A DNA stretch of 64,000 bases from Psilocybe cubensis. Its lineage: Eukaryota. How positions within the stretch are numbered: the stretch's first letter is position 1; every line of letters begins with the position of its first letter. Positions 2,666 through 59,695 of this stretch are shown here, one piece after another. The notes beneath the pieces were generated by a model that was not told where the DNA came from, searched no databases, and saw only the letters and a list, made by a program, of their open reading frames with translations. The translations under genes and the position numbers were made by a program. The DNA is taken from positions 496,001-560,000 of the forward strand of contig CM038998.1 of assembly GCA_017499595.2 (NCBI GenBank), written 5' to 3'.

Positions 2666-3207
2666 TGCTTAGTATTGTGTTCCGTTCCACGTTATTATCT
2701 GTACATGGGCTTCGCATGCTCAAAGGTGCCTAACTATCCAGGAAGCACGTACATACGGGGAGGAGCAATTACTACTTTAACCGCTTTTCACTTCTCATTG
2801 CTATCTCTAGTTTTGGTTATTTTTCCCTACACACCTGTCTTTTACGTATCGCAATTTTCATTCATAGCTCATCAAGGATATAAAAATGCATTTTAAACTC
2901 GAATCGAGCATTAGAGAATAGAAATCTCTATTAATGATGGCTTAATAGTACAGATACAAAGGTTGGTAAGTGACGTCTACTGTATCCGATGGAACAGGAT
3001 GACATAGGGATAGATATGTAGAAAAGGCTATCCAATAATCATCCTTTTATACAAAATGTGGAGACTATCGACATGGCGAGTGTGGCGTAAAACTTGGTTG
3101 ACGAGAACCCAAAGGATGGATTCCATAAGATTCCAAATGTAAATTGTACAAGGAGAAATCAATAGAGAGTACGCTTCACAAAATGATACAAGGATTGTAG
3201 TTTAAGA

Positions 3208-6200: not shown

Positions 6201-6212
6201 AGAGTCTGCCAT
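3208..6212 (-). CDS. Fungal-specific protein kinase (FunK1 / Pkinase_fungal)
   Basis: RGQIAAYA...FARFIRWDRRGAVVS, FMKDSW, GVLHRDLSAGNIMI (~4180-4220), GILIDWD, GTWAFIS, HSLGDDMESIFWVLVY; ATG at 6212 (MADSQVV); short GT-AG introns. Confidence 0.9.
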
Positions 6213-9386: not shown

Positions 9387-9635
9387 GTTGGATAGAGTTT
9401 AACCTGCAGGCGGGTTTGCGGCGGTCGAATGCATTTGGGGCCTGAGTCTTAACCTGATCGAAGGCAAGTGATCATTTCGATGGCCCGATGTCCATGACTT
9501 ATTTATGAACTCCGGTCGTTTTATGTAAGGTCGTGATCTACAGCTCACGACGGACGACGACGACCAGTACTCTACCCTATCAAACCTATCTTGAATACCA
9601 ACATAGCTGGTATCGAAATACCCAACTAAACACGA

Positions 9636-37294: not shown

Positions 37295-38955
37295 ATGGCT
37301 CCCTTAGGAGAAGGACCCAGCTCAGCACTGGATAGTACATTTGGTGCCATGTTGATTGGAGGTGAACGCGGTGGACTCGATCTATATCTTAACATTAAAA
37401 CAATGAATGTCATCCAGTATTCTTTGCCATCTTTTTCCAAGGAATTTTGTCTTTTCAAACATGGAATTACTTCGACAATTTTCCAAATGACCCACTGAAG
37501 TTCAAACTACTGGTAGGTGTTACTAGTCAAAGGCAAATGCGCCACATGGGTTACGGTATCTCACAAGTCCTGTTTCAGGTTTCGGTAGCATGGTAATTTT
37601 TTCGACTGGGATTGCTCACTCTTCAGATGAACCAAGTTCTAACTTGCCAATCTGATTTATAGGAGTTTGGATACCATACACACGGTGATAATTTGCCAGT
37701 TCATGTATCATTATCTGGTCACAAATTGGGGATTTCAACCGGCACTGGTCAATGCCACTCATGAGTTAATCATACACATCTTATTGGTCGGGATGTCGTG
37801 TTTTGTGTGCCAATTGTATTTCATGCATCGGTGAGTGACATGCTAGTAGCTATAGCTATCGTGGAGCTTGGACTCAATTTTATAACAGAATTTGGGTTCT
37901 GAGCAATAAAAAGATATTAGTTCTTTGCATTGCCCTTGCGCCCAGCTTGACGGCCTTGGTACTCAACATACACCTGCCGTTGAAGATGATCATCGCGCAT
38001 TTCACTATTCCGGAGCTGGTTTTAACTGAGAAAGAGTCGGCGGCTCTTTATTTCATCAGTGCTCTTTGTAAGTCATGATTGTATATCTTTCGAACGAAGC
38101 CTTACTCTAAACGCTTAAATTCATCCAGCCGACGTCGTGATTGCTGGGTTGCTGTGTTATTTTTTGAAAGTTTCGAATAGTCGTACAAAAATTCCAGCGT
38201 GAGCGATAATTAATGTATCTGGACGATAGAAGACTGATTGTATTTCCTCAGAACACGTCTAGTACTGAAAGACGTCTTTCATTACGTGATCGCAACGGGT
38301 ATTCTTACAAGTGCATGTGAGATCGGAGCTGTAATTGCAGTAAGAATTCTTCGTCAATTACCTAGTTTAATTCGCTAATCCAGAAATGAAGTATTTCATA
38401 CGACCAAATGGCCTTTACTTTGCTGTATGTATAGTATATACGTCATCTTGCAGATTGACTAATTTTCCTAGGCAATACACTTTTCATTAGGGAGATTGTA
38501 CACCAACTCGCTACTTGCAGCGTAAGTTCTATTTTCCATCACCGAATTATTTACGACGATCACTAACATAGCTCGATAAAAGATTAAATGCTCGTAAGAA
38601 AATGAAGGACAGGCTCCAACCAAGAGGTCCCAATATTGTTCGAGGTGTCAATAGTCACGGGTCGACCATCACGCAGCCAAATATGCATACAGTATCCATA
38701 AAGGCGGCTGAAGGTGATGATTTTGATGGCAAACCTCCACAGGTATGAGAAATTGGTTGCATAGCTGGGATATAATCTGAACAATTTTTCTCGAATAAGC
38801 GAACAAAGGCACGTCAATCTGAAATAAGATTCACGATTGAACGAGTTATACGTGATGATGATGGGGGAGTTGAGCAGCGCAGTGTAGATCGCCATGGAGA
38901 GAGGTCGTATGGAATTTGGCAGACATCAGCTGACCATGAACGAATCAGAAAGTGA
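37295..38955 (+). CDS. DUF6534-type membrane protein, copy B (close paralog of 29606-31234)
   Basis: Identical N-terminus MAPLGEGPSSALDSTFGAMLIG, matching exon structure, GRLYTNSLLAA-LNARKK, C-terminal IWQTSADHERIRK*. Confidence 0.82.
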
Positions 38956-39311: not shown

Positions 39312-41006
39312 ATGGACTTTTCCCAGTACGCCCTACCAGGAGATTGCGATAAATCCGGTGAAACTGTCTTATTGAAGGTGCCAACCACTAACCTCATCGA
39401 AAAATCCGAACATCGAGAAGTCGGAGTCCAGGATACCAGCACATCACCGAATATCATGATCAAAGGCAATCAACTGCCTTTCGAGATTCTTGCTCACATA
39501 TTTCAGCTATACGTCGATGAAGACAATAAGGCATCTTATGACATTCGTCCAATGGGTGCTTTTCCTCTCGGCGCTGTCTGTCGAATGTGGCGTCATGTTG
39601 CTTGGGCGTGTCCTAAACTTTGGGCTTCACTTCAAACCTTCCACGTACGACAAGCGACAACGCATGGACAAATTCAACTAGCAGTTGAGTGGCTTAGCCG
39701 TTCGGGCCAATATCCCCTGACTATCTTTCTTCGTGGATATATTCTCTCTGATTCAAGTGACAATATGCGTGCTCAAATGAAGGTTGGAGCACTTCTTATC
39801 CCTTTAATGGATGCCATCAGCCATTCCCTGAATCGGCTACATACTCTCGGATTAATTGGGCTTCCGGGATCGACAGTTTCCCGACTCAGCTGGGCATCTG
39901 TTCCAGCAACAGCGCTAAAGCGTCTGTATCTGGACACCCCTCAAAGCACATGCCTTCTCGATCTTTCATCCTCTGCGCCATCCTTCCTTAATATGCAAAC
40001 TATGTCGCTGGACGCACTCACCATCAACTGGAACAACCTTACTGAATACGGGGCGGCCGAAATGGTCCTAGACGATGTGCTTCAAGTGCTTGCACTTGCT
40101 CCTCGAATAGCAGTATGTCACATAGTCGATCTTGAAAAAAGTGACGACTTCCCATTGCAAAGCACTGGCCGTCCCGTCGTATGCCATGAACTGACAAATC
40201 TTTACGTCAATCCAATGTACCACACCGAAGATGTGGTCTCTGAGCTCCTCCAAAAGATTACATGCCCTAAGCTCGATGGTTGCACTATCGACGACGATGC
40301 AACACTGCAACCTTCTACGGTGCTAGATTTTCTGCATAGGTCATGTTGCCCCATCACCGGCCTCGTGCTCGGCGAAGAAATCTGCTCGGGAGAGGACCTC
40401 TACCGTATCGCAACCGCCTTCCCATCACTCACAACTATCTGGATGCGCAAGTTGGACGATTGGATGGGTGTGGAGTCGTCTCTATCTCTCTTGCCGTTTT
40501 TCAACGCTCTTTGCGTGGAATTTCGATACGACTCACAAACACATCCCGTGCTACTTCCGCAACTGAAAATTTTCACAGTTGATACCCGTAATCCAATTCC
40601 ATGGGGAAAGCTTCCTGGCTTCCGTCATAAGCGTTTGTTTACGAGTGATGGCGAGTGTAACGGGTACGAGGTTGTCAGGCCAGGCTTGGAAAAAATTACC
40701 ATGTACACAGAGTACGGCTACTTCCAGCCACAAATGGACTCTGAGCGTCGTACTGGCGAGGGAGAGGCCGAAAATTCCAAGCAACCCCCCCTTGGTTTGA
40801 TTCGAGATTGGCAGTCCTTTTCGGAGCTTGTCAAGCTCGCTGCTGAAGTTCGCCTGGATTTGCAAGTGAAGGGGCGCGATTTATTCTACCTGTCGTATGT
40901 TGCGCTCAAAAGCGTTGTTGGGGAGGCCCCAGATGATGTGAAGCAGTTTATGGAGGGAAGGCCGGTCCCAATGGATATAAATGATTCTGGGGCGGTGGGT
41001 TTATAG
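39312..41006 (+). CDS. Intronless F-box/LRR-like protein, copy 2
   Basis: 564-aa ORF; QLPFEILAHIFQLYV...FPLGAVCRMWRHVAW; collinear with copy 1 through RLDLQV...LSY.ALK...P.DVKQFM. Confidence 0.85.
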   Translation: MDFSQYALPGDCDKSGETVLLKVPTTNLIEKSEHREVGVQDTSTSPNIMIKGNQLPFEILAHIFQLYVDEDNKASYDIRPMGAFPLGAVCRMWRHVAWACPKLWASLQTFHVRQATTHGQIQLAVEWLSRSGQYPLTIFLRGYILSDSSDNMRAQMKVGALLIPLMDAISHSLNRLHTLGLIGLPGSTVSRLSWASVPATALKRLYLDTPQSTCLLDLSSSAPSFLNMQTMSLDALTINWNNLTEYGAAEMVLDDVLQVLALAPRIAVCHIVDLEKSDDFPLQSTGRPVVCHELTNLYVNPMYHTEDVVSELLQKITCPKLDGCTIDDDATLQPSTVLDFLHRSCCPITGLVLGEEICSGEDLYRIATAFPSLTTIWMRKLDDWMGVESSLSLLPFFNALCVEFRYDSQTHPVLLPQLKIFTVDTRNPIPWGKLPGFRHKRLFTSDGECNGYEVVRPGLEKITMYTEYGYFQPQMDSERRTGEGEAENSKQPPLGLIRDWQSFSELVKLAAEVRLDLQVKGRDLFYLSYVALKSVVGEAPDDVKQFMEGRPVPMDINDSGAVGL

Positions 41007-41460
41007 GTGGAAAGGAATGGACATGGGGATGATGGGCCCCGTGTATACTATGTGATTCTGTCCACTTTCATGGCGGCGTTGCTTTTCAGCCTTGTATATG
41101 ACCATACTATAGGATAATATTTTTCAATAGTCGAAAGAAATATTGTCAGAAGGGCAAAAAACAGGATAAGAAAGGAATGTGAGTAGGTAATCAGGCTATG
41201 CCTATTCCGAAGGGTATTTTGAACCGGAAGAAAGCTTTCTCACGAGATGACACGAGTTTTAATCTAGGACCGTCGCATGTCTCTGAACTTCTTCCATGTT
41301 CAAACTGTTCATGGTATAGACCCGCCGTTATCTCTGATTCTAGCTGCAATTCTGCCAAGTTCCATCTTGAGACGACTTCTTTATACGTGAGGTATTAGCT
41401 GTCACCATCCATTTTAGCTGTAGCTTTTTTTTCCATTGCTTGGTTTTACACTCGGCACAT

Positions 41461-41504
41461 AGATACCAAGGGATGGAAGGCAAGATACCAAGGGATGGAA
41501 GGCA
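41461..41504. repeat. 22-bp direct tandem duplication upstream of protease copy 2
   Basis: agataccaagggatggaaggca x2; only one related copy upstream of protease copy 3 (~57500). Confidence 0.85.
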
Positions 41505-41630
41505 ATAAGACGAAGCATGTGTGAATGCCGCTGATAGCAGTATTCTTTTCTTGCTATTCTCTAATTGCTTTAAAGAACAAAGTCCAGCCCGTTTACCTTC
41601 AAAGGCGTACTTCGACTCCATTGGCCTATC

Positions 41631-43389
41631 ATGCTGAAAACAATTTTCTTTATCGCACTCCTGGTAGTCGAGTTGGCAGGGAACCCAATACTCGTTGAAA
41701 GGTCCCCTATTAACCTACCCATATCTCGTCGGGCAAACATCACGGGTGGTCTTGACCTCTTGAAGCGTGACCGTGCCCGGGTCGGATACATTAAAACACA
41801 GGCCGTCTCGAGAGGACCTGCAGATTTGCGGTCTGTTCGCGATTTTTTCGATTTCATTGACTACGACGGGGTTGGCTACGTTGCCAAGGTCGGCGTTGGT
41901 TACCCAACTACATATTGTAAGTTTTTATTAAACTTCAGTACGATGGTAGCCTGATTCCCCTTATTGATTCCCTTATTGTCGATACTGGAAGGTATACTGC
42001 CGTTCTCTTTTTTGCAATGACAACTTACATCAGTCAAAAGTTCAAACACATGGATTGGAGCCGGCCGACCATACGAGAAAACCTTTACCAGTCACAAGAC
42101 TACGTACCGGGTGGTAGGTACCTCATTTATAGGCTTTGCTCAAAGAAAAATACTGGCAAAAACAATGTCATTAACCCTTATCCTCAGGAACTCAATTATG
42201 GATCGGGATCCATCTTTGGAGACGAATATATTGACAACTTATTCCTGACTCCGAGCCACGTAGTCGCACGGCAATCTATAGGAGTTGTTAACAAGGCATT
42301 TCACTTCTGGTATGTTAAAGTTTAAACTTGCTGATTATTCATCCCAGGCGAAAGGATTTGAGGGTGTGGATGGTATACTAGGGTACGGATACATCTGCTT
42401 AATTAGCTCGGTTTCACATCATTATATTTGACGCTTTCTGATGAGTTAGAATCGGTCCTGTTAATCTTACTTTGGGAACCTTGTCTGACAATAGCATTCG
42501 AGTCCCAACTGTGACGGACAACCTTTTCTCACAAGGGACAATTTCTTCCAATGAAATCGGAATAACCTTCCAGCCAACCACTGCAACTGATGAACATGGT
42601 GCTAAAGGAGTAATAACCTGGGGTACGCTCATTAATAAAGTACCCAGGCCGGCCTCATTCCTCATAGATTGACGTAATAGGCAGACCCGACTCGCACTGG
42701 TTCACAGGCAATATTTCCTACATGTAAGTAATCGCATCGCTGGGGGAAACTATGCATCGAAACCATAATTTGTTTCCCCCAGATCGTTGACGAACAAATT
42801 TCCTTCCTCTGAATTCTGGGGGTTCGACCATTCTATCCGATATGGCTCATCGACCACAATTCTGTCCTCTGGAACTGGAGTCGTCGATACAGGTTCGTCA
42901 ATGCTTGTGTACAAAATGGGCCATAATTTGATATGAAAGCGATTAGGTGCCACCTTTATTCTGCTCGCCCGAGATGCATTTAACAGATACCAGGCTGCTA
43001 CAAACAGTCAGCCCGATAGCAATACTGGCTTATTAAAGCTACCGGCTTCCAGTTACAACAGTCTAGAAAGCTTATTTTTCTCTGCAGGAGAAGTGAGTAA
43101 CATGTAGAGTTGATTCCAGCAAGTACCATTTCTCATTACCGTGACCTTTCTCTAGCATACTTTTGAATTTACTTCCAATGCGCAAATATGGCCTCGATCG
43201 CTAAACGCTGACATAGGCGGAGTCGCTGGAAGCATTTATCTCATTGTTGCGGATGCGGGAACTCCGTACCCCTATGGAGACGTTGCTTACGGCTATGTTT
43301 TTCTTCAACGATTTTATTGTGTATACGATACCGCAAACAGGCGCCTGGGTCTTGCAGAGACAGAGTTTACAAGAGATACATCCAATTAG
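41631..43389 (+). CDS. A1 aspartic protease, copy 2 (possibly a pseudogene: defective splice sites)
   Basis: Signal peptide, YVAKVGVGYPTT, LIVDTG, GVVDTGAT, FLQRFYCVYD. The acceptor before the DTG micro-exon reads ttattg instead of ...ag (~41966), and one donor is gcattt (~42296). Confidence 0.8.
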
Positions 43390-44005
43390 TTTAGCTACCT
43401 TGACGCGTCGTCCCTCAAGCTGGGATCAAATAGTGATCCATCCGATGTACAATTACTAGTATAGAAACTTTTCATGCCACTTGCAGAGGATCCGCGTGTA
43501 CTTTGAGAACTCGTAATATGGTGTAGCCAATGTTTCATAATACGTCAAATTGGCAAGACAAGAGGCCAAATTCTTAATAAACTAAGATGACAGTTTATGT
43601 GGATGGAAGTAAACTGATATCCTCAGTTTGTGCATCTCAATGTGTAAATCATCCTTGGAGAGCCGGCATAATTTTGCGTAGTCTGGCGGCTGACGTATAG
43701 TATAGCAATCAGTGTATACTTGGACCCTTCCTTCAGTCCAAGTCGGTAAGAGTGCAGACAATGCCGTGGTGCCGCGATTTCGGCATTAACCGAATACGGC
43801 AATTATTGTCGTCATGAACCGGCAGGATATGTCATTCCGTAGGTTTCCGCCCCTGACTACAATATGCTTAGAGGGAAATCGGTGTGCATATGTAGATCAT
43901 CAGGCCTTTGCTTCACCTATAAAACGTGAGATTTGTGCCCAATGAAGCATCAATCTCTTCGAAACCATTTTATAACACTCACACTTCAACAACCTCGTCC
44001 AACCA

Positions 44006-44977: not shown

Positions 44978-45803
44978 TTATTTTGAAGATCGTTTAGGTC
45001 GACGGGCCACCCGTCTCCATAATAGTATCCAAAGGGCTCTAAGCAAGCCTATCGGCGGTACCAACCAGCTCAATCGCCATGACCAACCTGATTGCTTCTC
45101 CAGTTTCTGTAGCAGGCCATCAATGTGTCGTTCGAGGTCTTGTTTAGAACCAGAATTGTCGATGACAATATCAGCGTAGGCAACTTTCTCCGTGATTGGA
45201 AGTTGGGATTTGAGACGGGATGTCGCATCTTCGCGTGACGATCCGTCCCTGAGCATGAGCCGCTGCAACTGCAGTTCCTCGGAGCTTAAAAAAGTCGTGT
45301 CTTAGTCGATACCGTTCTAGCAGCAAGACATTGTAGAACAAATACGCACCAGTACACCACAACGACCTGAGCAACCAACTGCCATAGCCCGCCTTCAATC
45401 AGCAGAGGAACGTCCATTACGCAATACTTGTGCCCTCTTATCCAGAACGCAAGTACTTGCCAGAGCATTGCCTTTCTCACAGCAGGATGAACTATCGCAT
45501 TCAACTGCTTCCGCTTGCCCTCGTCGTTGAAAATGATGCTCCCAAGTTTCTTCCTGTCAAGCGCGCCGTCAGGAAGAAGTACGTCATCCCCAAACGCCTT
45601 CTTAATCTTCTCCAGCGCAGGCATCCCAGGTTCGACTACTTCGCGCGCAATCACATCGGCGTCGACGATGGGGACGTTGGACGCTTTGAGCATCGACGAC
45701 ACTGTTGACTTTCCGGTGGCAATACCTCCTGTTAGGCCTATCACTGCGCCTACGTTATTGCCCACGAGCTAGAAGAGACGTGAGGAGAAGGAGTACCAAG
45801 CAT
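44978..45803 (-). CDS. CAB5: Dephospho-CoA kinase (CoaE family)
   Basis: ML|VIGLTGGIATGKST P-loop, DADVIAREVVEPG, LDRKKLGSIIF, LNAIVHPAV, DVPLLIE, QLQRLMLRD, ADIVIDNSGS. Confidence 0.92.
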
Positions 45804-46003
45804 TGTTGTAGTTCTGTGGCGCTGGGACGTGGGGTATGGTAAGTAGTCAAAGTAAGAACGTGCACTCGGTAATTTGGAACACCGGGAGACCCTGCGAGAG
45901 CATTCTCAAACTCCGAGTCTAGCCGGTCTCGGCAAGCTTAACAACAACACCATAGATTTAAACACGAAAGTAGCATACCTAATTTATAGCTGCTTTCATA
46001 TCA

Positions 46004-46680
46004 TTACTTGGATTCCACGGCTCTGTGTTGCGACTTGTTTGACGAATAACTGTAATCACAATCGATATATGAGCAGCATGCAACAAGTTCCGTAAGATTG
46101 CTCCAGTCTACGTCAAGGCTGTCTAGCTTGACGTATGGGACGTTCAGAATGAGTGATTCTGCCTTAAAATTCAAGTCAGGCAATGAATTGGAGCAAGAAT
46201 GTATTTTCAACGTCTTCAAGACACATGGTGAACCAAAGAAATGTCCTATGGAGATACGAGTAAGTATAGAGTAGCTCACGCGTAGGCTGAGATAGTGACA
46301 ACGACGAAGAGTTTCGACGACGACGTCTGCTAGAGGGATGAAAAATTGGAACATTTCTGTCCGATATGTTCCATATTCTTCCACGAGAAAAATTGAAAGA
46401 AAAAGTTTTCTGAAACGGCCAAGCCACTCAATCGCAAGGCCCACAGGCGAGGAGAGTCCCAAGCAATATTGCGCCATCGTTGACATACGGCACCTAGAGG
46501 AAGGAAGCCCTTGGGCTGGATACAAGGGTCGAATCTTGTGGCACTGCCTGGTTCGATGTAGAGCTGGAATATGTATGCAAGCACTTCAGCCGGCATCCGA
46601 TCAGTTACATTCCTGGAGCTTTGCTGGTGAAGCTGAGGTAAGGATATTTCCTCGGAAAGTAAAGCTTGTGGAGTCGACAT
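46004..46680 (-). pseudogene. F-box gene relic, 5' half, frameshifted and deleted
   Basis: RMPAEVLAYIFQLYI...LPLGAVCQRWRNIAW...LW in one frame, then LAIEWLGR...LDVDWSNLTEL in another; homologous to 34849 and 39312 but truncated. Confidence 0.8.
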
Positions 46681-46984
46681 GTGCAGAGACCAATTCTTTG
46701 AAGTTGCAAGTTGGAAGGTGAGCGTGGACGTAGGTGTGAACTTGTTGATTTGATTGTTCTACAGACTATATAGTCTATTTTCAAGTCAAGGTTAACCCGC
46801 CTCCTATCTAATTATAGCGGCTATCGGTCAGCTTCAACCTCCGCCCGAACTCCGCACGGGTCTTTTACCAGTGACGAATCAGGGCGACTCGTACCATTCA
46901 TTTTCGAATCAAAACATACAACCTCACACAGAAGTTTTGACTAGGCTTTAAGTCAATTTCATGAAAAGTATCGATCCTGATCAT

Positions 46985-47200
46985 TGCACAAGTTGGAATA
47001 CCAGGTGGGTTCAGGTGTGTCGTCTCTATCTCTCTGGCCGTTTTCAACGCTCCCCTTGTGTGGATATGCTACCGAGTGAAACTGATATAAAGAACTTCGG
47101 GGTGATGAAAGAAGGTTTGAAGGTGGCTGGAGATGGGAATAGGAATGGGAATGGATGGCGATCTTGGGTATCATGAAGTCTCATGAAAGCGTTGCTTTGC
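46985..47200 (+). pseudogene. F-box gene relic, 3' part and downstream flank (paralogous to 40445-41085)
   Basis: gtcgtctctatctctctggccgttttcaacgctc (47019-47052) nearly matches 40475-40509; gatataaa...ggttt..aggtgg matches the copy-2 stop region; tcatgaaagcgttgcttt resembles 41068-41085. Confidence 0.7.
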
Positions 47201-47265
47201 TCTGCTAAAGGGTGACACCAGCCCCTGCCAACGGACACTTCAAACCGTAGAGAAAAATGCATAAA

Positions 47266-47307
47266 CACAGCTTTCGGTTTTTCCAACATCAGAGATTTAG
47301 GGAAAAT
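47266..47307 (+). repeat. Left imperfect terminal inverted repeat
   Basis: cacagc-N15-catcagagatttagggaaaat. Confidence 0.65.
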
Positions 47308-47700
47308 CTTATCGTACAATATGATGTGATATAATTTGTATAATATGCTATCGTTGCGGCTGGAAGTGGTGTAAGTATTATACCACGGATGATAGTATAC
47401 CATGAGGGTTGTAATGTGATGATATAGCCAATGTCATGTAGAGCCGGTCTGCCAAGACTTTATCGCCTCGGGTCGGTATTACAACAAAACGATCATCTGT
47501 TGTAATCTATATGCACAATTCCATTGGATTACACCTACATTATGGACTCGTTGTCATAATGATATCTGGTACATCTACTTGCTACATTTCTGATTTGCTG
47601 TGATCGTTATACCACATTCTTACACGCGTTCTTAAGGGTAATTGAATAATTCACGTGCAAACAATTTATATTTCTGTAATCCAAAAACAATCTACATAGC

Positions 47701-49464
47701 TTACGCACTCCCTTCCCCCGCATGCACCGCACGCGACTCACGAAGCATGGAAAAGGGAGAATCTTCATCATCTGAATCTTCTCCAACTTCAGTTGTGACC
47801 GGTCCATTAGGGAATACCATACTGCATATAACAGATCAACAAAATTCTCAGAATTAAAGATATTAAACTCACTCGTTCCACCATTTCAAGAGTTCTGTGA
47901 TGTGCTTTTTGTGCTCCTCTGAATGCTGGCGTGTATCTTCAAAATAATCCACAACAAAGTTGTAGAGACGACTAAAGTTGATGTAATAATATTCATCTTG
48001 CCATTGAGTTGCGTCGGTAAGATTAAATATCAACTAGAATAATAATTGAGTAATTATAAACAATAAAGAAGTGATAAAAACTCACAATGACCGCAGCATA
48101 TGCAATTGTGCGAGGGGTTACACGTCCATCCAACCCGATAATAGCCGCAACAGACCTTTTTGTTGCCTTCCGAGACCGACGAAAATTGGCCAGACGCATG
48201 GCACCAACACCCACTGTATCATCGGGATGAAAGGCTTCCGCTGATGCCGGGCCAGTGAATAGGGCACAGTAAGTCTTTGAACGATACATTAAATTCTGTT
48301 ATATTAAGGATGGTATGCAACGTACCTTGACTAAGAGTGTACTTCTCAAAAACAGATAGTCGAGGGAATGGCCATCTAAACAATGATTTCGAGGATACAA
48401 TGCACCCAAGAAACATGTTTTTCGGAGACGCGGTTTCAAGTCTACATCACCAGCACACACCTTGGCCCTAACACTAAAAAATGAATAGAGATTAGAAGGG
48501 TGATACTTTGATAAATTACAACATACATTTCGTTTGACCAGTCATGCATAATAGGACAAAGCAACCGGCCAGTGATTGTGTTTTGAAGGCCTCGCTGATC
48601 CCTGCTCTTTGTGAAAAAATGCTGGCTTGGGTTGTACATTTGGTTCAGAAATGTAGCGACTTCTTCCTTCATACGGCGTACATCGTCGGATCGTGCAGCA
48701 TTTCCCTTTTTTTCAACATTACGAAGAAAGGCTAAATTGTCAGACTTGACTCGCCAGTCAAACGTAGGGCTGAGAATTGGGCGCAGAGTTGGAACGTAAC
48801 TGAGCAGTAGTTTGAAGCTTTGAAAGTTACGAATGTGGCTAAAAACAAAGTCAATGTAGCGGCTGTAAAGCAAAAAAGAAGAGCACGTACTTGGTAATCT
48901 GGCTAGCAGTCATGCTGAGTGTCTCCGGGTCCAAATGATGCACATCCTGGGCAAGATGAAGAGTTTCAATACTATCAAACAATGAAACAGCCTTTCGAAG
49001 GCAACGTCCTTCCGCATGGCCATCCGAATCATCCCTAAACATTAGCAGGAGTTTTAAAATATACAATGACAATACTTACTGCAACGCAGCCCATGGACGA
49101 TGCCTTTTTGCTCCAAGCTTGGCCGTCAGATCCTCATTTAATCTTTTAAGACTAGACACTTCAGCCCTCAGTTGCAAGCGAGTGGGTGATTCCTGTGACT
49201 GTTGACTAGATGATGAGCCAGATGATGGTGGCTGGCCTGAATACGATGTCGGAAAGCTTGGTGGTAGTGGAGAGTGGCTATAAGGGTCATGATGTTCTCG
49301 AGACCCATGCGGCCCACGGATTGGCGTTGATCCTGGTGCTCCACCTGTCAAGTAACACAAAAACATTAAAGAGAGAATAGATAAGAACACAGTGCAAGCC
49401 ATTGCATACCGTAATCATCAAGTGGGTCTCTTCCTCGATGTCCTCCCCCATATCGACGGTCCAT
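47701..49464 (-). CDS. DUF6698-type protein inside the transposon (intact, multi-exon)
   Basis: MDRRYGGG start; ARSDDVRRMK, RGLQNTITGRLLCPIMHDW, FLRSTLLVK|TYCALFTGPASA, GRVTPRTIAYAAV, LYNFVVDYFE, LLKWWN-MVFP; exons splice in frame. Confidence 0.8.
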
Positions 49465-49922
49465 GCTATACAGGATAGGATGATGAAAGATAAAATTTTG
49501 TATTGGTTTTAAACCGATAGAAACAGGAGTAGCCATAGGCTTGGCCTTGGGTGCGGAAGGCGGGAAATGATTAACATTCTATGGAAATTTTCTACGCCAC
49601 TTACTGCAGTGTGTTTCTGGGCTCAAAAACCTCTGTGCCAACGTGGATAAAGCCATAGAAAGAGACATAAAGGAGGAGAATAAAGAAATAGATGAGGTGG
49701 CAAGGTGGTAGTAATGAATCAACAATCTGTAGTGTGACAATCGTCTGAGATCCACACTGTGGGAACAAAATTGATGGCTGAAAATTACACCATTTGAAGA
49801 CGTAGCCAAGCTTGGATAAATTTCTCCTTTAAATCTACATTCTAGCATCGTAATTCCATTCTAACATCGCAATTGCACGAATATCTACTACACAAAACCA
49901 CACATAACCCACAGAGGCAGGC

Positions 49923-50792
49923 ATGCCCCGGGGAATCTCCACCAATGTCTATCCAGTCATTCTTTCTTCTCGAACTCGAACAATACGTGACGAGGTTATT
50001 GAAAGCTCCCAAGTTGAAGAATGCGAGGTAAGCATTTTAAAATTTGTGTAAAAAGGAAAAACTTTACTTACTTTAATGAGTGTATACAGTTGCACATACC
50101 ACCTGCTTCTGTAGGAGATGACTTTGACATTCACAGCGAGATGGGGCCAGCTGTAGTTGCTGATTGCTCAATAACTAGCAATACTTTGGATAGTGATGAC
50201 GGAATTGTTATCTTTGAAGACCATTCAAACGGAGCTGTTGAGAGAGCCGTTGAGGAGGAAGATGAGATCAACAGATCTATTGAGAGAGTTGTCGAGGAGG
50301 AAAGTCAGCTAACTGTCGATTGGTCGGAAGAGTCAATGGAACGTCACATGGCCAATCTGTTTGGCCTCGATACTCAAGAACACATGGCACAGTTATCTCA
50401 GGAAATTCGCGAAGCTGTGGAGCAAGAGATGGCTGCAAATTGTATCAATACTGGCAAGTTATAGATTTGTTTCGTTACATACCGATTCATTGATCACTGA
50501 TATGTGTCAACTTCTAGCTTCTGCATGCTCCATGGACCCAGCACAAGCTAGCGAAACTGAAAACAAGTCAGATCACAATAATCAGAGACCAAAAATCATA
50601 CCGATTTATCATTTCACACCCGTCGACTTCCCTGAACCACCCGCGCCATTACGCCTTGGGACTCCACGATGCAATGCGGGCAAAGCGGCGCGTAAAGCTC
50701 GAAAAATAGCGGCTGAGATTGCTACATTGGAAGGTGTCTTGAATGACTTGCGCAAGCGCCATAGACGCTACTTGAGGGAATCATACCTGTAG
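49923..50792 (+). CDS. Hypothetical acidic/coiled-coil protein inside the transposon (3 exons)
   Basis: MPRGISTNVYPVILSSRTRTIRDEVIESSQVEECE|LHIPPAS...MAANCINT|(GC donor gcaagt)ASACSMDP...IAAEIATLEGVLNDLRKRHRRYLRESYL*; divergent from the DUF6698 gene. Confidence 0.6.
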
Positions 50793-50850
50793 ATAAAATG
50801 GGCTGGTCAGTACATACTGTAGCAAACAAAAAGCTTGTACAAACCAAAGC

Positions 50851-51260
50851 GTGTTATTTCTCCTTCCTACTAAGTCGGTTGAGCCTGAGCCGAAGCAGCA
50901 GCAGAAATGTTGTATCTGCCTTGACGGCCTGTCTGCATCGATAAGGCGTTATGGTTGTCAATACTTGTCGACTCCGAAACTATGTCGTAATTGCAGCTCC
51001 CACATCCGCACACACGCCAGCACCCGAGTCAACCCTTTTTCCGCAAAACACAATGGGAATGCTCTTGCAGACGCGCTCAAGATTGCGATGCCAGTGAGGG
51101 ACGTTTTTGTAGGTGAGTGAGTATGAATGGAGGTGGCACGGGGGTTGATGACGAACTGAGTGGGTTTGGCGGTGCAATGGGTGGTGTGCATGGCGAGCCG
51201 ATACAAACTATCCGAAGACCCCAACCAAAAGGTCATCCTAGACGGCAAACGCGAGCGACG
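50851..51260 (+). pseudogene. Cys-rich coding relic truncated at the PDA1 junction
   Basis: CCICLDG...CRNCSSH followed by broken frames ending DPNQKVILDGKRERR exactly where the PDA1-derived sequence begins. Confidence 0.35.
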
Positions 51261-51320
51261 GTTCAGGGCTGGTCGTTCGCAACACCCCCCTCTTCAATGT
51301 AAGACGGCAAACGTGAGCAA

Positions 51321-52215
51321 TGGTTCAGGGCTGGCCTTGGCCTCCTCGACGGTGGCGTCGACCTCAGCCTTGGCCTTCCTGTCAAGCTGCTTAAGCTCCT
51401 GCTCGTTCGCAACACCCCACTCTTCGATGTATTTCTGGAGACTACAGATGGGGTCCTGGGTAGAACGCATACGCTGGACTTCCTCACGGGTACGGTAGGT
51501 GGTTCCTGGGTCGAACATGCTGTGGAGTTGGGTCAGAAAGCAGTTTACACGAGGTAATTTGGTAAACGCACGAGTGTCCTCCATAGCGGTATGTCACGAA
51601 TTCAAGGAGAAGAGGACCATTCTGGTTGTCGACAGTCCACTTCCTGGCATACTCAACAGCATGCTTGGTGGCGAGAATATCCATTCTGTTAACCTATTAC
51701 AACAGATGAACAAATGAGCATCAGTGCAATGAACACATACGGGAGAAGCAAGAACCACGGAACGGTAAACCTACCTGGAGACCAGGGATTTTGTCACCGC
51801 GCTTAAAGTACTCGGTGTTGGAGGACGAGCGGGCGGCAGAGGTACCCATACCCGTACTTGTTGTTTTCACATACAAAGACAGTGGGCAAGTTCCACAATT
51901 TGGCCTATAGAGATGCAATGTATTAAGGAAACAGGAATATATGCGCAATTAATGAACGCACCATGTTGTAGGCTTCAAACACCTGTCCCCGGTTGCTGGC
52001 CCCATCATCATACAGAGCGAAAGTGCAGGTCTTCTCGCCCATGTACTTCTGGGCGAAGCTGACACCAGCACCATTGGGTACTTGAGCACCGACAATAGAA
52101 GGGATAAAGATGTGCATCAAACCACCCTTTCCAAGCGACATGCTGGCCTAGGGTGGCAGCGGTAGGTGGTGATGACACAGTCATCTTTGGTGATTCCGTG
52201 TTCAAGGCCAATTGC
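51321..52215 (-). pseudogene. PDA1: Captured, degenerate fragment of pyruvate dehydrogenase E1 alpha subunit gene
   Basis: [110 protein letters not shown]; ends EAKASPEP. Internal deletions, a frameshift and three retained introns. Confidence 0.93.
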
Positions 52216-52440
52216 TGAACGGGATGCCACACAAGATGTGCACGCAAGAGATGAGTAGATGCGGGTGAAATCCTGGAACAGAGAATGACGATGAGAGACG
52301 TGTCACGATGGGTGTATTGGACTGATACTCACTACCACAACGGCTGCTGCTAAACTAAAGCACAGTGTAATGTCTGACTCGGAGGTGTCGTTCTAGGGTG
52401 ATGAGAAGGGTGTGATGGAGCAGAATCCATGGCAGCAGAA

Positions 52441-52524
52441 CCCTTGTTGTCCCCTCAGTCTCCCTGAAATCCCCAGCCCAGGGATGATCCATGGTTTTTC
52501 AGGGAAGCTGAGGGGTAAGAAGGG
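52441..52524. repeat. Imperfect ~28-bp inverted repeat upstream of the transposase
   Basis: cccttgttgtcccctcagtctccctgaaa (52441-52469) vs rc of 52497-52524 cccttcttacccctcagcttccctgaaa; outer catggc/gccatg extends it to 52428-52537. Confidence 0.7.
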
Positions 52525-52708
52525 CACGGTGGCCATGTAGATCTGTGCAGTATGAAGAGAACAAACATGGAACTGGCGCAAGTTGCGCAAGTGACATGTC
52601 ACATGACTTGAATGTGCGCGCGCGTCGAGTCGTTTACGCCTAATTTTCCTGCCTTGCTGCTTTATTGCTACTTATTCTACTCTTGCTGCACAGTAAAGCC
52701 TTGATCTT

Positions 52709-55700
52709 ATGGCCCAGTTCATATGTCCAGCCCCTGGTTGCCGTAAATCGTTGTCACGCCAAGTTGGCCTTACAATGCACATGAAATCGTGTCCGCATCT
52801 TCGCACCACACGCACACGCGCCCATTGCCACTCCGAATCGTATCAAACAAACGAGGATGAAGCACCATTTTCTGGATATGGAGATGAATCATTAGATCTG
52901 GGTCTTGAGTCCCCCAATCCACAACAAAGAAGGTCTCGGCGACTTGCTAATAGGAAACCTATGCAAAATATGGAGCCCATACCAATTGCACCACCACCTG
53001 CTGCCCCACACAATCCTCAGCCAGTACCTCGATGTGTGATACTTCATGTTCTGGACCGTTATGACACTCCTATGGACACTTTTAGAGTGTGGAGACACTA
53101 TCCTCGACGTCCTACCCGTGATCCTGATTTCTGTATTCGACCATCCGATCTCGCCAAACAGCCACCAATTATGCCCCTGCTACAGACCGTTCAGGACACA
53201 TTTCACTCATATATGGAAGGTCTAGCACCTACAGTCCGTCGGTTAATGACCTGGGCAAATAACGGTCAAACAACCAAGTCTCATGAGCAAATAAATGAAC
53301 TGGTTCATGATGTCTTGCTGGCAGACGATTTTAATCCAAAAGACCTCATTGACTTTGAGGCCCGAAACCAGAATGCAAAGTTGGACCAGGCCATAGCAGG
53401 TTCCGCCTTGCGAAGTCAATTTACAGAAAGCTCTGTCGACATTTTGGTTCCATCGGGCACAGTTAGCAGGCCGCCGGTGTCATACACAATTCCTGGTCTA
53501 CTTCATCGGTCTATCACATTTATTATTTCGGAATTCTTTACTGGCCCCCTTGGACATCTTGTCCACTACTCTCCTTTTGTTTTAAAGCAGCAGTCCGCCT
53601 CGAATCGTGAAGAACGGTTGTTTTCAGAGGTTTATAACTCTGATGCATTTCTTGAGGTACATGACTATATTCAGAAACATGGGCTCCTGCCACCGGGTCA
53701 GGAAGACTGCCAACTGGAGAGGGTTGTTGCCGCTGTTATGCCGCTATCAGATGCAACACATTTTACAAATTTTGGAAACGCAAAAGCATGGCCTATCTAC
53801 CTGATGCTCGGAAACATTAGCAAATATGTTCGGGCCGTTCCTGGGTCAGGAGCATTGCAGCACCTTGCATATATCCCTTCAGTACGTGTTTGCATTCTGA
53901 TATCTCTTTGACTATTTGCTCATATATTAGGCAATTAGCTTCCAGATTCATTCAAGGACTTTGCCGCTGAGCATAACACCAAATGGAAAACCCAAAAAAG
54001 CCAAATTCTCACTCACAGTCGCCGTGAGCTTATGCATAGTATCTGGTGTCACCTCCTCGATGACGAATTTGTTTATGCATATAAATATGGCATGGTTATC
54101 CGCTGCATTGATGGCATCATGCGACGCATATATCCACGCATTTTTACATATTCAGCAGACTATCCTGAAAAGTATGTGCAGTTAACTTGATAATACTCTA
54201 AAGTGCACTGAACAGGGCCAATTTCTAGAGTGCTTTTAGCAACTATTAGAGACAAAGGAATGTTTCCTTGTCCTCGTTGCATGGTACACCGGTCAAAACT
54301 TGATTTAATGGGTCTCTATCGAGATCTTCAAACTCGAGTCAAGCAGCTGCGAACATTTATGGTAGAAAAGGTCAAAGCTGCTCGTGATCTTATATATCGA
54401 CAGGGATACGGAATAAAGAGTCAGCAGGTTGAAGATCGGCTTCAGGAATTTTCGGGTGTACCAACCCAGGTATACAACCGTCTTTCTGTGCACAATCATA
54501 TTTTAACATCAGAAACCTACAGAATGCATTTGTTGAGAGGCTCAATCTAGATCCGTCACCAATGCTAGCACCTGACATTCTTCACGAATTTGAACTCGGA
54601 GTCTGGAAGTCATTGTTTACGCACCTTATACGTATTTTGTATGCTGCCTCAAAGGGGTCCGATGATCTAGTCAGTGAGCTGGACAAAAGGTATCTGCTAC
54701 AGAATGGGCATTTTCAATGTAAACTGACGGGTATGTTCTCCTTTTATAGATATCGTCTGCTCTCAACATTTGGTCAAGGTACCATACGAAACTTTTCAAA
54801 CAATTCGTCAGAAATGAAGAAACTTGCCGGGCGTGATTTTGAGGATCTTCTCCAGGTAATATCATTCATTTTATATATAAATTGAGGTAGAACTGACAAA
54901 AGTGCAGTGCGCTGTTCCAGTCTTTGAAGGGCTACTTCCAGAAGCAGATGACTATCGCCTCAGAAAACTTCTCTATCGAACAGCTGAGTGGCATGGCTTG
55001 GCAAAGATGCGCATTCATACAGAAGGCACTTTAACAGAATTGGAAAAAGTTACCACAGAGTTGGGAAAACTGATGCGAGGCTTTCGTGACCTTACCTGCA
55101 GCCATTATGACACTCATGAACTGCCGCGAGAGATTGAAGCACGTACTAGGCGTGAAGGAAGAAAATCAGCCCATGCTTCTACCGCAGCAGTACTACCAAG
55201 CTCATCTGAGGTATCAATACCTACCATAGTGCCCAAGCCAACTCGTAAACCCATCAAATTGAACCTTTTTACTATCAAGTGGCACTTCTTAGGCGATTAC
55301 GTGGAATATATTCGTCGCTTTGGTACAACTGACTCATATTCAACACAATTAGTATGCTTCAATTTCAGACATCTATAATCATTACTGACTAGAAAATTAT
55401 GGCAGGGAGAACTGGCTCATCGTCTCATCAAGTCTTTCTACCGCCTGACCAACAAAAAGGATGCAAACAAGCAAATTTCAAAGAAGTATAACCGTATGAA
55501 TGCTTTACAATTGGTTGATGCTAGTCAGATCAAATCTGAGAAGAATGAAGCTGACGCAGCTGCTCAAGACAACAAAACTCACTACATCTCTAAATCCCAG
55601 AATCAACGTGTCCCAATTTTTTCATTTATTGCGGACAAAGATCCTGCTAAAGTGGTACGATAATTGGGTTTTTAATACCACTAGCTGTTTGACAATCATA

Positions 55701-56620
55701 TTTGTTCTTAGAACTTCCTACCAAAACTGCAAAATCATTTGCTAGCCCGCCTGTTAGGACAGAAATTCGATGGCGACACTGATGAAATGTTTACAAATGA
55801 AGATCGGTATACAGTGCGTATCGTCAACAATACTATGTATCGTGTCAACACACTGCGCGTCAACTTTACTACATACGACATGCAACGCTCATACGACACA
55901 GTCTCACGGAACCAACCATTTATAATGCTTCACTCACCCGAGACGGAGCCTGGTACTCATCCATTCTGGTATGCCTCAGTAATGGGAGTGTTTCACGCCC
56001 AGGTCCAGCATATTGGCCCATTATCAACTGATCTTGCCCCCCAACGGATGGAGTTTTTGTGGGTTCGCTGGCTGGGCATAGAGCCAGGTTACAAGTTTGG
56101 CCGCAAACAGGCCAAATTGCCCAAAGTTGGATTTGTGCCAGATTGTGACGAAATGGCGTATGGATTTTTGGACCCGTCTCTTGTTATTCGGGGCTGTCAC
56201 CTTTTGCCATCCTTTGTTGATGGTCGAACAAACAATTTGCTTACCATCACCACTCCAACAGAAGCACGATGCATTGGCGAAACTGATGATTGGTGCAACT
56301 ACTATATCGGAATGTAAGTAAAGGTTTCTGATTTCCATGCATTATATTGAAGATATGATTGCAGTTTTGTTGACCGTGACATGCTTTCTCGTCATTTCGG
56401 GACTGGAGTTGGACACACAAACCGCACCGGTGCTGCTGATATTGACGACCATGACAATGATGACGATGATGAGACAATGGAAGATTGCTCTGGGATGGGA
56501 GAATTTGATAGCATGGTTGAAGTGGACACCAATTCAAGTGACGAGTCGGAGAGTGGGGGTGAAAATTCGGAATCAGATACTGATCTGAGTGAAGGAGATA
56601 ACGGATACGATGACCTGTAG
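52709..56620 (+). CDS. Plavaka transposase (PF18759-type), apparently intact
   Basis: N-terminal CPAPGC...HMKSC Zn finger; EVYNSDAF; SDATHFTNFGNAKAWPIYLMLGNISKY; YSADYPEK; CPRC; DILHEFELGVWK; KLAGRDFEDLLQ; KWHFLGDY...FGTTDSYSTQL|GELAHR; HPFWYASVMGVFH; FVDRDM...GVGH; introns splice in frame. Confidence 0.9.
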
Positions 56621-57094
56621 CCTGGGATAATTTCATGCGTGTATTTTGCACAATCGTTACATCTCAAATGAGTAGTACGTTGAGTTCAGAGTTGACCGAG
56701 CTTCTATGACGCAATCCTTCGACTCGCCTTTGAACATGGCTCCGGTATGACATCATAAAAGCTCAGGTGTCGATGCTTATAATTTGTTACCATTATTACC
56801 TCTAAGCGGCCGTTTAAACATAATAATGATTCCTACTTTACAGTTATGCAGTATAGATGACAAGACATGACCAGATTGTTATAATTCTGGCAGCTGAATG
56901 ATGTGGTGGATATAATGACAATATCATCATGATATTCCAATGATAATGTGGCGGTCAGCATTTCATCACATTATAACACACTGTCTGTATGATCATCACT
57001 GATAATTTGAAATCAGTGAGATTTTCACCAGATATGGCATCATAACGCCCAAATAATTATGGCAATACGCTACAGGTAATGTATTTGCTGTCGT

Positions 57095-57141
57095 ATTTTC
57101 CCAGAATCCCTGATGAACTTGCCTACCTTGATGATGCTGTG
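57095..57141 (-). repeat. Right imperfect terminal inverted repeat
   Basis: attttcccagaatccctgatg-N20-gctgtg; reverse complement mirrors 47266-47307. Confidence 0.65.
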
Positions 57142-57629
57142 TAACTAATTTTGCTTTCTTGTGTTGTAGAAAAATAGTCAGAGGGTAGGGTTGGACCATG
57201 CGAACCTTGCTTCGGGACTAGAAGCTGAACAACATTCGGGGTATCTTCTTGAACAATAACAATACTCTCCCACAGAATGACACAGATTTTAATTTCAGGC
57301 TATGCCATGTCTCTGAACTTCTTTTGTCTACAGACTGTTCATGGTATAGACCCGCCTCTAGCTCTAGCTCTAGCTCCAAACTGCTCCAATTCTGTTTGAT
57401 ATAACTTTTATCAACGTGATATCAGCTGTCGCCATCCATTTCACCTGTATCTCGACCCATTCACTGCCCGTTCTCATATTTGGATCATTGAGATTATGAG
57501 CCAGAAGGGATGGAGAGTCCGACGAAACATGTGTGACTGCCGCGGACCAGTATTTTTCCTGCTGGCATTCTCCAATCCTTTAAATACCCAACAATTTATC
57601 TCAAGCACATTGGCTTGCTAGCCGCCATC

Positions 57630-59378
57630 ATGCTGCACACGATTTTCCTCATCACAATCCTTGTAGCCGAGTTGGTAACAGGGAATCCAATACTCATCAA
57701 TAGGTCTCTTATTAACCTACCCATATCTCGTCGGGCAAACATCACGGGCGGCCTTGACCTCCTGAAGCATGACCGTGCCCGGGCAAGGTACATGAAAGCA
57801 AAGACCATTGCTAGAGTATATGGAAATTCATTTCATACCCTCGACGTTATCGGCGAGCCAGTTGAGAACGATGAAGTGGAGTATATTGCCACCGTTGGCG
57901 TTGGTAGCCCACCTACATATTGTGAGTGTTTCTTTAATGATAGTAGGATTGTGGCCTGACTCTGCTTATTAGACTCGCTTGCTGTTGACACTGGAAGGTA
58001 CACTCATACTGTCGTTATTTTGTCCTCTTTCCAATGACATCTTACTACTTCTACAAAAGTTCAAACACATGGATTGGAGCCGGTAAAGCTTACAAGAAAA
58101 CTGGCACTAGTACCCAGACTTCAAATCAGGTGGTAGGTAAAACACACTTACGCGCGTCGCTCAAAGAGACCTAGTATTTGGTGACCAATCATGCTCAGGA
58201 TGTAGGATATGGATTGGGATCCTTCTCGGGAACCGAATATCTTGACATGGTCACCCTGGCTCCTGGCCTGGTAATCAAAAACCAATCTATTGGAGTCGCT
58301 TCAACGGTATATGCTTCCCACCTTAATGCTGATATCTCTAATTTCAAAACAGTCGAAAGGATTTGAAGGGATAGATGGAATTCTAGGGTATGTGACGTAC
58401 ATATACTCAGATTTTTACAGAAAACGTCTGAAAATTTCTAGAATCGGTCCAGTTGATCTCACAGTGGGAACTTTGTCCGACAAAAGCGTTCGAGTGCCTA
58501 CTGTGACCGATAACCTTTTCTCACAGGGGGTTATTTCCTCCAACGAGATCGGCATCTCCTTTGAGCCTACAACTGGCCAAAATAAACATGACGGAGTGAT
58601 AACCTGGGGTGCGTTGGTTAAAGTACTCAGGTCACCGTCATTCCTCCTTCTCATAGATTTCACATTACAGGCGGGACCGACTCGACCAGATTTACGGGTA
58701 CTATTTCCTACATGTAAGTAATCCTCTCACTGAAGAAGCTACTCATAGAAGGCATAAAAAATTAAAATATGATACGTAGACCTTTGACAAAGACATTTCC
58801 TGCCTCCGAGTTCTGGGGTATTGACCAATCTATCCGATATGGCGCGTCAACTACAATTTTATCCTCTGGAGCTGGAATCGTAGATACCGGTGCGTTATTA
58901 TTTGCCGATGCAACACGAGTCGATATCTTACCTGAACGGAATAGGGACCACGCTCATCCTTCTCGCCACCGATGCATTTAACAAATACCAGGCTGCGACT
59001 AAAAGTCAGCCCGATAGCAATACCGGCTTCTTAACGCTGCCGGCCTCCAGCTACAGCAATTTAGAGAGCTTATTTTTCTCTGCAGGGGGAGTGAGTAATT
59101 CAATATCCACAACCGATACCCATGTCTCATCGTGACCAAATGTCCAGCATACTTTCGAATTTACGTCCAACGCCCAGATATGGCCTCGCTCCCTGAACAC
59201 CAACATTGGTGGAGTCGCTGCAAACATATATCTCATCATCGCGGATGCGGGTACAGACGCCCCTGGCGACTTCGTTAACGGTTTTACTTTCCTCCAACGA
59301 TTTTATTCTGTATACGATACTGCAAATGGGCGTGTGGGTCTAGCGCAGACCCCCTTCACCAAATCAACATCCAATTAA
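57630..59378 (+). CDS. Secreted A1 aspartic protease, copy 3 (close paralog of copy 2, canonical splice sites)
   Basis: MLHTIFLITILVAELVTGNP, YIATVGVGSPPT, LAVDTG, GIVDTGTT, VNGFTFLQRFYSVYD; promoter homologous to 41240-41630. Confidence 0.92.
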
Positions 59379-59695
59379 TTGAAACAGAGATACTGTATCA
59401 AATTGATTGAAAAATACCAACATTAACAACTTCATTCTTTTCCAAACCGCCAATGGATACCAACACTTTCAGTTCGTTTCAAGTCAACTTCGATCACAAC
59501 GGAAAATTTTTGAAAATGGGTATAATCAATGTATTGTACAATAGAGCAATAGTGCGTCAATAATCAAGCTTGAATGATACAAGACTATATGTGCTATTAG
59601 AATGGAGCGAAACACGGTTAACGAAATAGAACAACATGGATGGCAAAAAGAGCAGCAGCTGGATCAAGAACAACAATAACGCAAAAAGCTCAGGG

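Follow-up and report, generated by a model that had tools for sequence, protein, structure and literature searches.

A Plavaka transposon of the PlavakaB type in Psilocybe cubensis: its ends, its empty allele and its genes

The En/Spm (CACTA) transposons of plants are large elements with short terminal inverted repeats (TIRs) and subterminal repeats, which encode a transposase and an accessory protein, give rise to deletion derivatives and capture host fragments; in plants, Pack-MULE and CACTA elements transduplicate fragments of host genes. The PlavakaB families of Agaricomycotina have the termini 5'-CATCA..TGATG-3' together with target-site duplications (TSDs) 2 or 3 bp in length, whereas PlavakaA families have the termini 5'-TGT..ACA-3' and 2-bp TSDs, and all TET+ Plavaka families belong to PlavakaB, as described by Kojima (2025, PMC12730594). 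The TIR motifs of Plavaka elements have also been characterized in Marasmius oreades (Hiltunen et al. 2021, PMC8290104). The window analysed here, a 64-kb stretch of intron-containing fungal DNA from Psilocybe cubensis, holds a 9829-bp sequence at 47287–57115 that, taking the explanation as a whole, is with high confidence one autonomous-looking cut-and-paste transposon of the PlavakaB lineage, in the CMCT clade (EnSpm/Mirage/Chapaev/Transib/Plavaka).

The termini of this element read CATCA..TGATG and are flanked by a 2-bp TSD, as in PlavakaB, and they are also of the CA..TG kind described for CMCT. Judged by its termini, its TSD, its PF18759 match and its CxxC motif, the element is of the PlavakaB type. 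It thus resembles the PlavakaB elements of Agaricomycotina (Kojima 2025, PMC12730594) in PF18759, in the termini, in the 2-bp TSD and in a CxxC placed after the second catalytic aspartate, and differs from the TET+ members described in that paper in having no TET/JBP gene (no ORF (open reading frame) that was scanned gave a Pfam match to a TET/JBP dioxygenase). MarorPlavaka of Marasmius oreades (PMC8290104, PMC9674265) is likewise defined by pfam18759, has characterized TIR motifs and is abundant in an agaric genome; it belongs to another host species, and the likeness is one of description rather than of end sequences. With En/Spm the element shares subterminal short repeats, a two-gene logic, deletion derivatives and the capture of a host fragment, but its ends are CATCA and not CACTA, its TSD is 2 bp and not 3 bp, and its second gene lies on the opposite strand instead of being an alternative splice product. 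A profile scan of the element proteins gave no match to the EnSpm families of Pfam at E ≤ 0.01.

Ends, target duplication and empty allele

Fourteen public sequencing runs matched the window, eight of which contained at least half of the sampled words. Four runs were aligned to 45800–58600 at 90% likeness: X13 and X14, which are raw read sets with the same species label, and X9 and X8, which are contig sets with partial shares of the sampled words (0.20 and 0.58, respectively). All four contain an empty-allele joint that leads from 47284 directly to 57116 and skips 9831 bases, supported by 32 reads in X13, 19 reads in X14, a single contig in X9 (record 7, 3087 bp, spanning 45800–47284 and 57116–57739) and another in X8 (record 2). 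In the empty allele, ...TTTTTCCAA is joined directly to CTTGCCTACC..., with one AA and no footprint. Because the 9831 skipped bases equal the 9829 bp of the element plus 2, the target duplication is a 2-bp AA. Reads that derive from other copies have loose ends before 47287 (61 reads in X13) and behind 57115 (43 reads in X14), and the consensus agreement of these loose ends, only 0.64–0.65, indicates several different flanks; the other copies therefore share the window sequence exactly from 47287 to 57115. The true ends of the element are 47287 and 57115, and from the first base of each end a 21-bp imperfect TIR (18/21) aligns without offset.

An earlier note, made from the letters of the window alone, had proposed a whole Plavaka transposon bounded at 47266 and 57141 by CAC-type (CACTA-like) termini, CACAGC and GCTGTG. 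These hexamers are present at 47266–47271 and 57136–57141 and are inverted with respect to each other, but in 4 of 4 runs the empty allele retains 47266–47284 and 57116–57141, hexamers included, as contiguous host DNA. They are host flank, and the element ends in CATCAG and CTGATG instead; the proposed limits lie 21 bp too far out at the left end and 26 bp too far out at the right end. The note had itself stated that its ends would fall if the homology of other copies stopped well inside them, and that homology does stop inside, at 47287 and 57115. A 6-bp inverted match within about 25 bp of the true ends has a chance probability of about 0.15 (a rough estimate, 25 × 25/4096), and an element bounded by the hexamers can be set aside with near certainty. 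Other parts of the proposal fared better. Both inverted matches that it listed exist (47287–47307 with 57095–57115, 18/21, and 47408–47425 with 56960–56977), and the first, regarded then as subterminal, is the TIR itself. Copies sharing termini but differing in their flanks, which it had named as a possible confirmation, were found, with the shared ends at 47287/57115 and not at 47266/57141. A 2-bp AA duplication is real at 47285–47286 and 57116–57117, whereas the AA read outside ACACAGC/GCTGTGT was coincidental. An empty allele joining ...gcataaa to taactaa... had been predicted, and the joint observed is the one given above.

One feature of the joint weighs against the 2-bp duplication: three of its letters are ambiguous, AAC fitting on either side. 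A 3-bp duplication of AAC, with an element running from 47288 to 57115 and beginning ATCAG, would satisfy the arithmetic equally well, and TSDs of either 2 or 3 bp are reported for PlavakaB families (PMC12730594). It would, however, break the symmetry of the TIRs, as the right end reverse-complements to CATCAG; C47287 is common to copies with other flanks, whose loose ends start before 47287; and related metagenomic elements (described below) begin with CATCAG, three of them between matching 2-bp flanks. The 3-bp version is accordingly very improbable, and the 2-bp AA duplication is retained. An origin of the 9.8-kb difference as a non-transposon indel, that is, a segmental duplication or a recombination product, has nothing in its favour beyond the fact that the observation is one of presence and absence only; exact TIRs at the break, the 2-bp duplication, the internal transposase and the further copies with other flanks leave it with negligible probability.

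Inside the TIRs, the subterminal regions are rich in short repeated motifs. Twenty canonical 7-mers occur at least three times in the two terminal 500-bp stretches, compared with 4.6 ± 2.8 in 500 equally spaced window pairs, 2 of which reached 20, and with a maximum of 15 in 500 shuffles. The 11-mer TAATGTGATGA, which forms the core of the second inverted pair, has only two perfect copies in the 64-kb window, both subterminal, at 47412 (+) and 56963 (−). The combination of a short TIR with subterminal repeats is an En/Spm-like layout. As PlavakaB termini are already in print (PMC12730594), the end structure of this element is not new, and the expectation of the earlier note that it would define the ends of Plavaka elements does not hold. 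The features of the element are collected in Table 1.

Table 1. Features of the transposon and its target duplication, in window coordinates
Feature	Position	Strand	Basis
Whole PlavakaB-type transposon, 9829 bp	47287..57115	+	Empty-allele joint and loose read ends
Left AA copy of the 2-bp TSD	47285..47286		9831 = 9829 + 2; joint ambiguity AAC
Left TIR, starts CATCAG	47287..47307	+	18/21 against reverse complement of right end
Left subterminal region, short repeated AT-rich motifs, 11-mer at 47412–47422	47308..47786		7-mer enrichment
DUF6698 gene, 8 exons, 464 aa, intact	47701..49464	-	P0090 mapping
Orphan ORF3, 3 exons, 243 aa, acidic then basic coiled region	49923..50792	+	P0085 mapping
Spacer between ORF3 and PDH fragment, structurally variable among copies	50793..51321		Joints and loose ends at 51177–51361
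Host pyruvate dehydrogenase (PDH) E1-alpha fragment, intron-bearing, about 1 kb, lacking both gene ends	51322..52302	-	PF00676 matches
Hairpin-like sequence of about 50 bp with many genomic copies, shortly upstream of the transposase gene	52463..52512		Inverted repeat and loose ends
Plavaka transposase, 10 coding pieces; annotated start 52775, upstream in-frame ATG 52709	52709..56620	+	P0086 mapping
Right subterminal region, same motifs, 11-mer at 56963–56973 (- strand)	56616..57094		7-mer enrichment
Right TIR, ends CTGATG	57095..57115	-	18/21 pairing with left end
Right AA copy of the 2-bp TSD	57116..57117		9831 = 9829 + 2; joint ambiguity AAC

The transposase and its predicted fold

Annotated proteins (P0001, P0054, P0085, P0086 and P0090) were used for mapping and for profile scores. 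P0086, of 1128 aa, maps to 52775–56617 in ten collinear pieces with 0 mismatches, and the transposase gene is therefore intact. The exon-1 ORF (52697–53911) and a second ORF (53939–54190) both match Pfam PF18759; P0001, which is 98% identical to the window copy, reaches 116.1 bits on this profile against a cut-off of 26.3 (E 2.6e-33). A search with the exon-1 ORF returned 53 longer relatives, all of which carry PF18759, the best being a hypothetical protein of Psilocybe cubensis with 98% identity. The mapping and the PF18759 matches of the window ORFs bear out the transposase spliced in frame that had been read from the sequence. Translation from the upstream in-frame ATG at 52709 would add a Cys/His finger to the annotated protein; the family consensus N-terminus carries CxxC...HxxxC, which the finger predicted from this ATG matches.

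The motifs SDAT, SADYPE, GELAHR and DxxH (as DILH), picked out in the earlier note, are present in the translation and coincide with conserved positions in an alignment of 39 sequences. D320 of SDAT is conserved in 38 of the 39 sequences, D437 of SADYPE in 36, C455 and C458 in 36, H542 in 36, H738 in 37, D742 in 36, E762 of GELAHR in 35 and H765 in 36. H738-x3-D742 occupies the place where the H(3-4)H of CMCT transposases is expected. The spacing of D, D and CxxC, and that of E762 after H738-x3-D742, resemble the arrangement in RAG1, and by this spacing E762 would be the preferred candidate for the third catalytic residue. Weighing against that choice, the candidates E543, E545, E683 and E687 are as well conserved in the alignment as E762.

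The AlphaFold model of the transposase has a predicted local distance difference test (pLDDT) score of 75.5 and a predicted template-modelling (pTM) score of 0.79. Foldseek matched it to 41 PDB chains at E ≤ 1e-3, all of them RAG1 among the matches listed, with TM scores of 0.38–0.54 relative to the target; next came BbRAGL, the RAG1-like transposase of amphioxus (E 9e-3). HzTransib reached only E 0.28. The sequence profile of the transposase gave no meaningful match among PDB sequences. The core of the protein is predicted to adopt a RAG1-like fold, in which it resembles RAG1 and BbRAGL; unlike Transib and RAG, the element shows neither a 5-bp TSD nor ends resembling recombination signal sequences. 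Separately, a beta-rich C-terminal domain of the model (residues ~867–1031, encoded at about 55.8–56.3 kb) gave Foldseek matches to BAH domains (ORC1 BAH, E 0.06; BAHCC1 BAH, E 0.27) that are too weak to claim a relationship.

A DUF6698 gene opposite the transposase

The second intact gene of the element is oriented divergently from the transposase, at a distance of 3.2 kb in the window. P0090 (464 aa) maps to 49464..47704 in eight collinear pieces with 0 mismatches, and the near-identical P0054 scores E 2e-43 on PF20414. The structure model (pLDDT 76.9, pTM 0.71) comprises a disordered N-terminus followed by an all-helical part. With this model, Foldseek found no PDB match at E ≤ 1e-3, and the DUF6698 profile gave nothing but coiled-coil noise among PDB sequences. 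DUF6698 was also considered as a PE-type TET/JBP-like protein and ruled out: its model shows helices only and matched nothing in the PDB at that threshold, so it is not a TET/JBP dioxygenase.

Metagenome contigs were scanned with the DUF6698 alignment, which yielded 80 loci, and 53 Plavaka proteins were compared with these loci by tblastn. Of the 80, 19 gave Plavaka matches and thereby have both genes; 15 of them show the head-to-head arrangement of the window, with the transposase upstream and on the opposite strand. The 15 loci fall into 12 groups at 90% identity, and the P value against random placement is about 1e-6 (4e-5 by groups). The gap between DUF6698 and transposase measures 286–1349 bp in 11 of them and 5.9–8.7 kb in the other 4. 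Six loci having flanks on both sides were searched without constraint for inverted 24-mer pairs outside both genes. A CATCAG pair was best or equal-best in three of them, L067 (22/24, 8253 bp), L041 (21/24, 6800 bp) and L066 (20/24, 6656 bp), and a CATCA-anchored search added L027 (17/24, 7396 bp); the CATCAG TIR pair encloses both genes. The 2-bp flanks match in L067 (GC), L041 (GA) and L027 (AG). At a threshold of at least 18/24, CATCA..TGATG pairs number 4 over all 80 loci and 0 in shuffled loci.

The recurrence of the divergent pair, partly inside CATCAG TIRs with 2-bp duplications, argues that DUF6698 is a family gene rather than cargo, and from these sequence comparisons it looks like the second gene that this Plavaka lineage usually carries. 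Several observations weigh against such a role. Upstream sequence of 3 kb or more is available for 31 DUF6698 loci, of which 12 are head-to-head with a transposase and 19 have no Plavaka match; the 2-bp flanks of L066 are mismatched, the pair in L044 is doubtful and no pair was found in L070. DUF6698 is therefore not always situated within a recognisable Plavaka element. If it were captured or merely adjacent cargo, like the PDH fragment, and no functional part of Plavaka elements, the 19 of 31 loci would be accounted for, as would the location of the top DUF6698 and Plavaka homologues on contigs of unequal length in Panaeolus papilionaceus and Pholiota conissans and the absence of most of the gene from a deletion derivative in X9. 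Cargo status is nevertheless unlikely in view of the head-to-head order in 15 of 19 two-gene loci with its low P value (by loci or by the 12 groups), the short gaps in 11 of the 15, the four loci with both genes within CATCAG TIR pairs and the multi-copy nature of the DUF6698 family within genomes. In the literature searched, neither the name DUF6698 nor its partnership with Plavaka turned up, although supplements of PMC12730594 or Repbase entries may show the partnership; the main text of that paper mentions neither a DUF6698 second gene nor captured host fragments and has no accessory-protein wording for Plavaka.

In a further metagenomic locus, L054, a CATCA..TGATG pair (18/24) at 832–9816 with matching GC flanks encloses DUF6698, and no Plavaka transposase was detected there; it is possibly a non-autonomous relative, or a chance pair.

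Captured host sequence, other copies and mobility

Between the two intact genes lies a fragment of the host gene for pyruvate dehydrogenase E1-alpha. Five collinear ORF pieces align to positions 27–58, 101–149, 162–192, 192–231 and 225–297 of PF00676 (300 positions), 3 of 5 above the Pfam cut-off. The start, the transit peptide region and the extreme C-terminus are absent, and positions 59–100 of the profile were not found. The counterpart of 51322–52149 is located on separate long contigs in X9 (30,616 bp) and X8 (10,268 bp), which have 33–35 differing letters and 19 gaps (about 4% difference) and continue unlike the window beyond 51322 and beyond 52149–52245. Between 48789 and 50923 X9 is otherwise uncovered, so that its separate contig represents the host gene and not a second copy of the element. 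In X13, three depth bins over the fragment stand at 80–89 against an element mean of about 64, an excess of roughly half to one flank depth. The fragment is a captured piece of the host gene, probably taken up at the DNA level.

Among the best-supported differences listed for 51353–51889, 17 of 21 have A or T in the window and G or C in the other sequence; of those 17, 11 lie at a CpG of the other sequence, two of them being CpG-to-TpA doubles. Overall, the differences in X13 and X14 comprise 143–148 each of C>T and G>A against 56–69 of T>C and A>G, a ratio of about two. By the counts for the fragment, the captured copy has decayed mainly by CpG-to-TpG/CpA change, a deamination-type signature. 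As in the transduplications of Pack-MULE and CACTA elements in plants, an intron-bearing fragment of a cellular gene lies between TIRs while the intact gene persists elsewhere; in contrast to those, the carrier is an autonomous-looking, fungal, Plavaka transposon.

ORF3 shares this interval. P0085 maps to 49923–50792 in three pieces with 0 mismatches and was the only match in a phmmer search of 1.84 billion representatives; no Pfam family was found for ORF3 at E ≤ 0.01. When the ORFs of 49400–52750 were compared with the remainder of the window and with the 80 metagenomic loci, a single PDH-like piece matched; ORF3 is accordingly not among the genes conserved in Plavaka. An atlas search with the ORF at 50797–51120 had a best score of 0.84 and gave RING-like leads only, below a meaningful level. 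The spacer at 50793–51321 has no family matches and occurs in variant forms in X13, X14 and X8, among them joints from 51343 back to 51177 and from 51269 to 51321. On either side of 52463–52512, loose ends occur in 55–106 reads per run; this short sequence may be a miniature repeat or belong to another element.

The gene order recurs in the annotation of P. cubensis, where it is found twice, on contigs of 3.05 and 4.68 Mb, under consecutive locus tags in the shared order DUF6698, ORF3, one number skipped, transposase. The two annotated copies differ by 3 aa in the transposase and 1 aa in DUF6698, and the window copy encodes proteins identical to those of the second set. The 32 joint reads of X13 come close to the flank depth of about 37 expected for a fully empty site, yet coverage of the element is about 1.7-fold that of the flanks, which places copies elsewhere in that genome. 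Derivatives with internal deletions also occur. On a 71,934-bp contig of X9, 48517 is joined to 54766 with a 3-letter microhomology, a loss of 6248 bases in which both ends are kept; a variant without 56161–56866 (joint 56160 to 56867) is supported by 9 reads in X13 and 16 in X14.

Cut-and-paste excision normally leaves a footprint. With its single AA and no footprint, the empty allele is most simply the ancestral state, which makes the insertion in the window young, and recent mobility is suggested by the near-identical copies, the deletion derivatives and the empty allele taken together. The empty allele, the other copies and the intact genes also support the whole, multi-gene and possibly mobile element envisaged in the earlier note. 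On the other side, the empty allele could in principle reflect a precise loss, mobility being read from alleles and copies, and the expression and splice pattern rest on annotated protein models.

The insertion lies in a spacer of about 0.7 kb between, and upstream of both, an F-box-like gene on the − strand to the left (PF12937, E 2.2e-6, at 46330–46758) and a + strand gene of a local paralogous family. This family has three diverged copies, at 14665–15993, 41219–43391 and 57249–59380 (65–78% identity), with the transposon upstream of the third; two ORFs of the family that were tested matched no Pfam family. Comparison of 40444–40519 and 41219–43391 with 46985–47064 and 57249–59380 (69–77% identity) brackets the insertion between 47064 and 57249, and the paralogues are too diverged to place the ends. 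No tRNA genes were found in 46000–58500. Strain polymorphisms of the left flank, present in most reads and contigs, are an insertion of 47 letters at 46438 and one of TA following 46775. Elsewhere in the window, 29606–30807 and 37295–38523 form a diverged direct duplication of about 1.2 kb with 69% identity.

A working picture of the element can be drawn from these results. The transposase, an RNase-H-type DDE enzyme of 1128 aa or slightly more with a RAG1-like fold, would bind the TIRs and the short subterminal repeats, excise the element and insert it at a target break with a 2-bp stagger. DUF6698 may have an accessory part, binding DNA or regulating, comparable to that of TnpA in En/Spm. 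The ~3.2 kb separating it from the transposase would be lineage-specific baggage, made up of the orphan ORF and the PDH E1-alpha fragment, the latter apparently taken up at the DNA level and now decaying mainly by CpG-to-TpG change. More tentatively, and with the balance of probability somewhat against it, DUF6698 might be a second gene that PlavakaB elements cannot do without, its product acting together with the RAG1-like transposase, for example by binding subterminal repeats of the TAATGTGATGA type as TnpA does, and Plavaka elements might transduplicate genes of their mushroom hosts, the captured copies then being eroded at methylated CpGs.

The element is not of a new kind, Plavaka end structure having been published in 2025 (PMC12730594); its modest novelty lies in DUF6698 as a partner, in a captured host gene fragment that has decayed at CpG, and in a naturally occurring empty allele and deletion derivatives. 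Its intact genes, defined ends, TSD, empty allele and derivatives make it a Plavaka transposon that appears to have moved recently, is known to the base and lends itself to experiment, and they supply what would be needed to assay excision or transposition by a RAG1-like fungal transposase. The capture of a host gene fragment is documented for this Plavaka lineage, and DUF6698, an uncharacterised Pfam family, gains a likely biological context.

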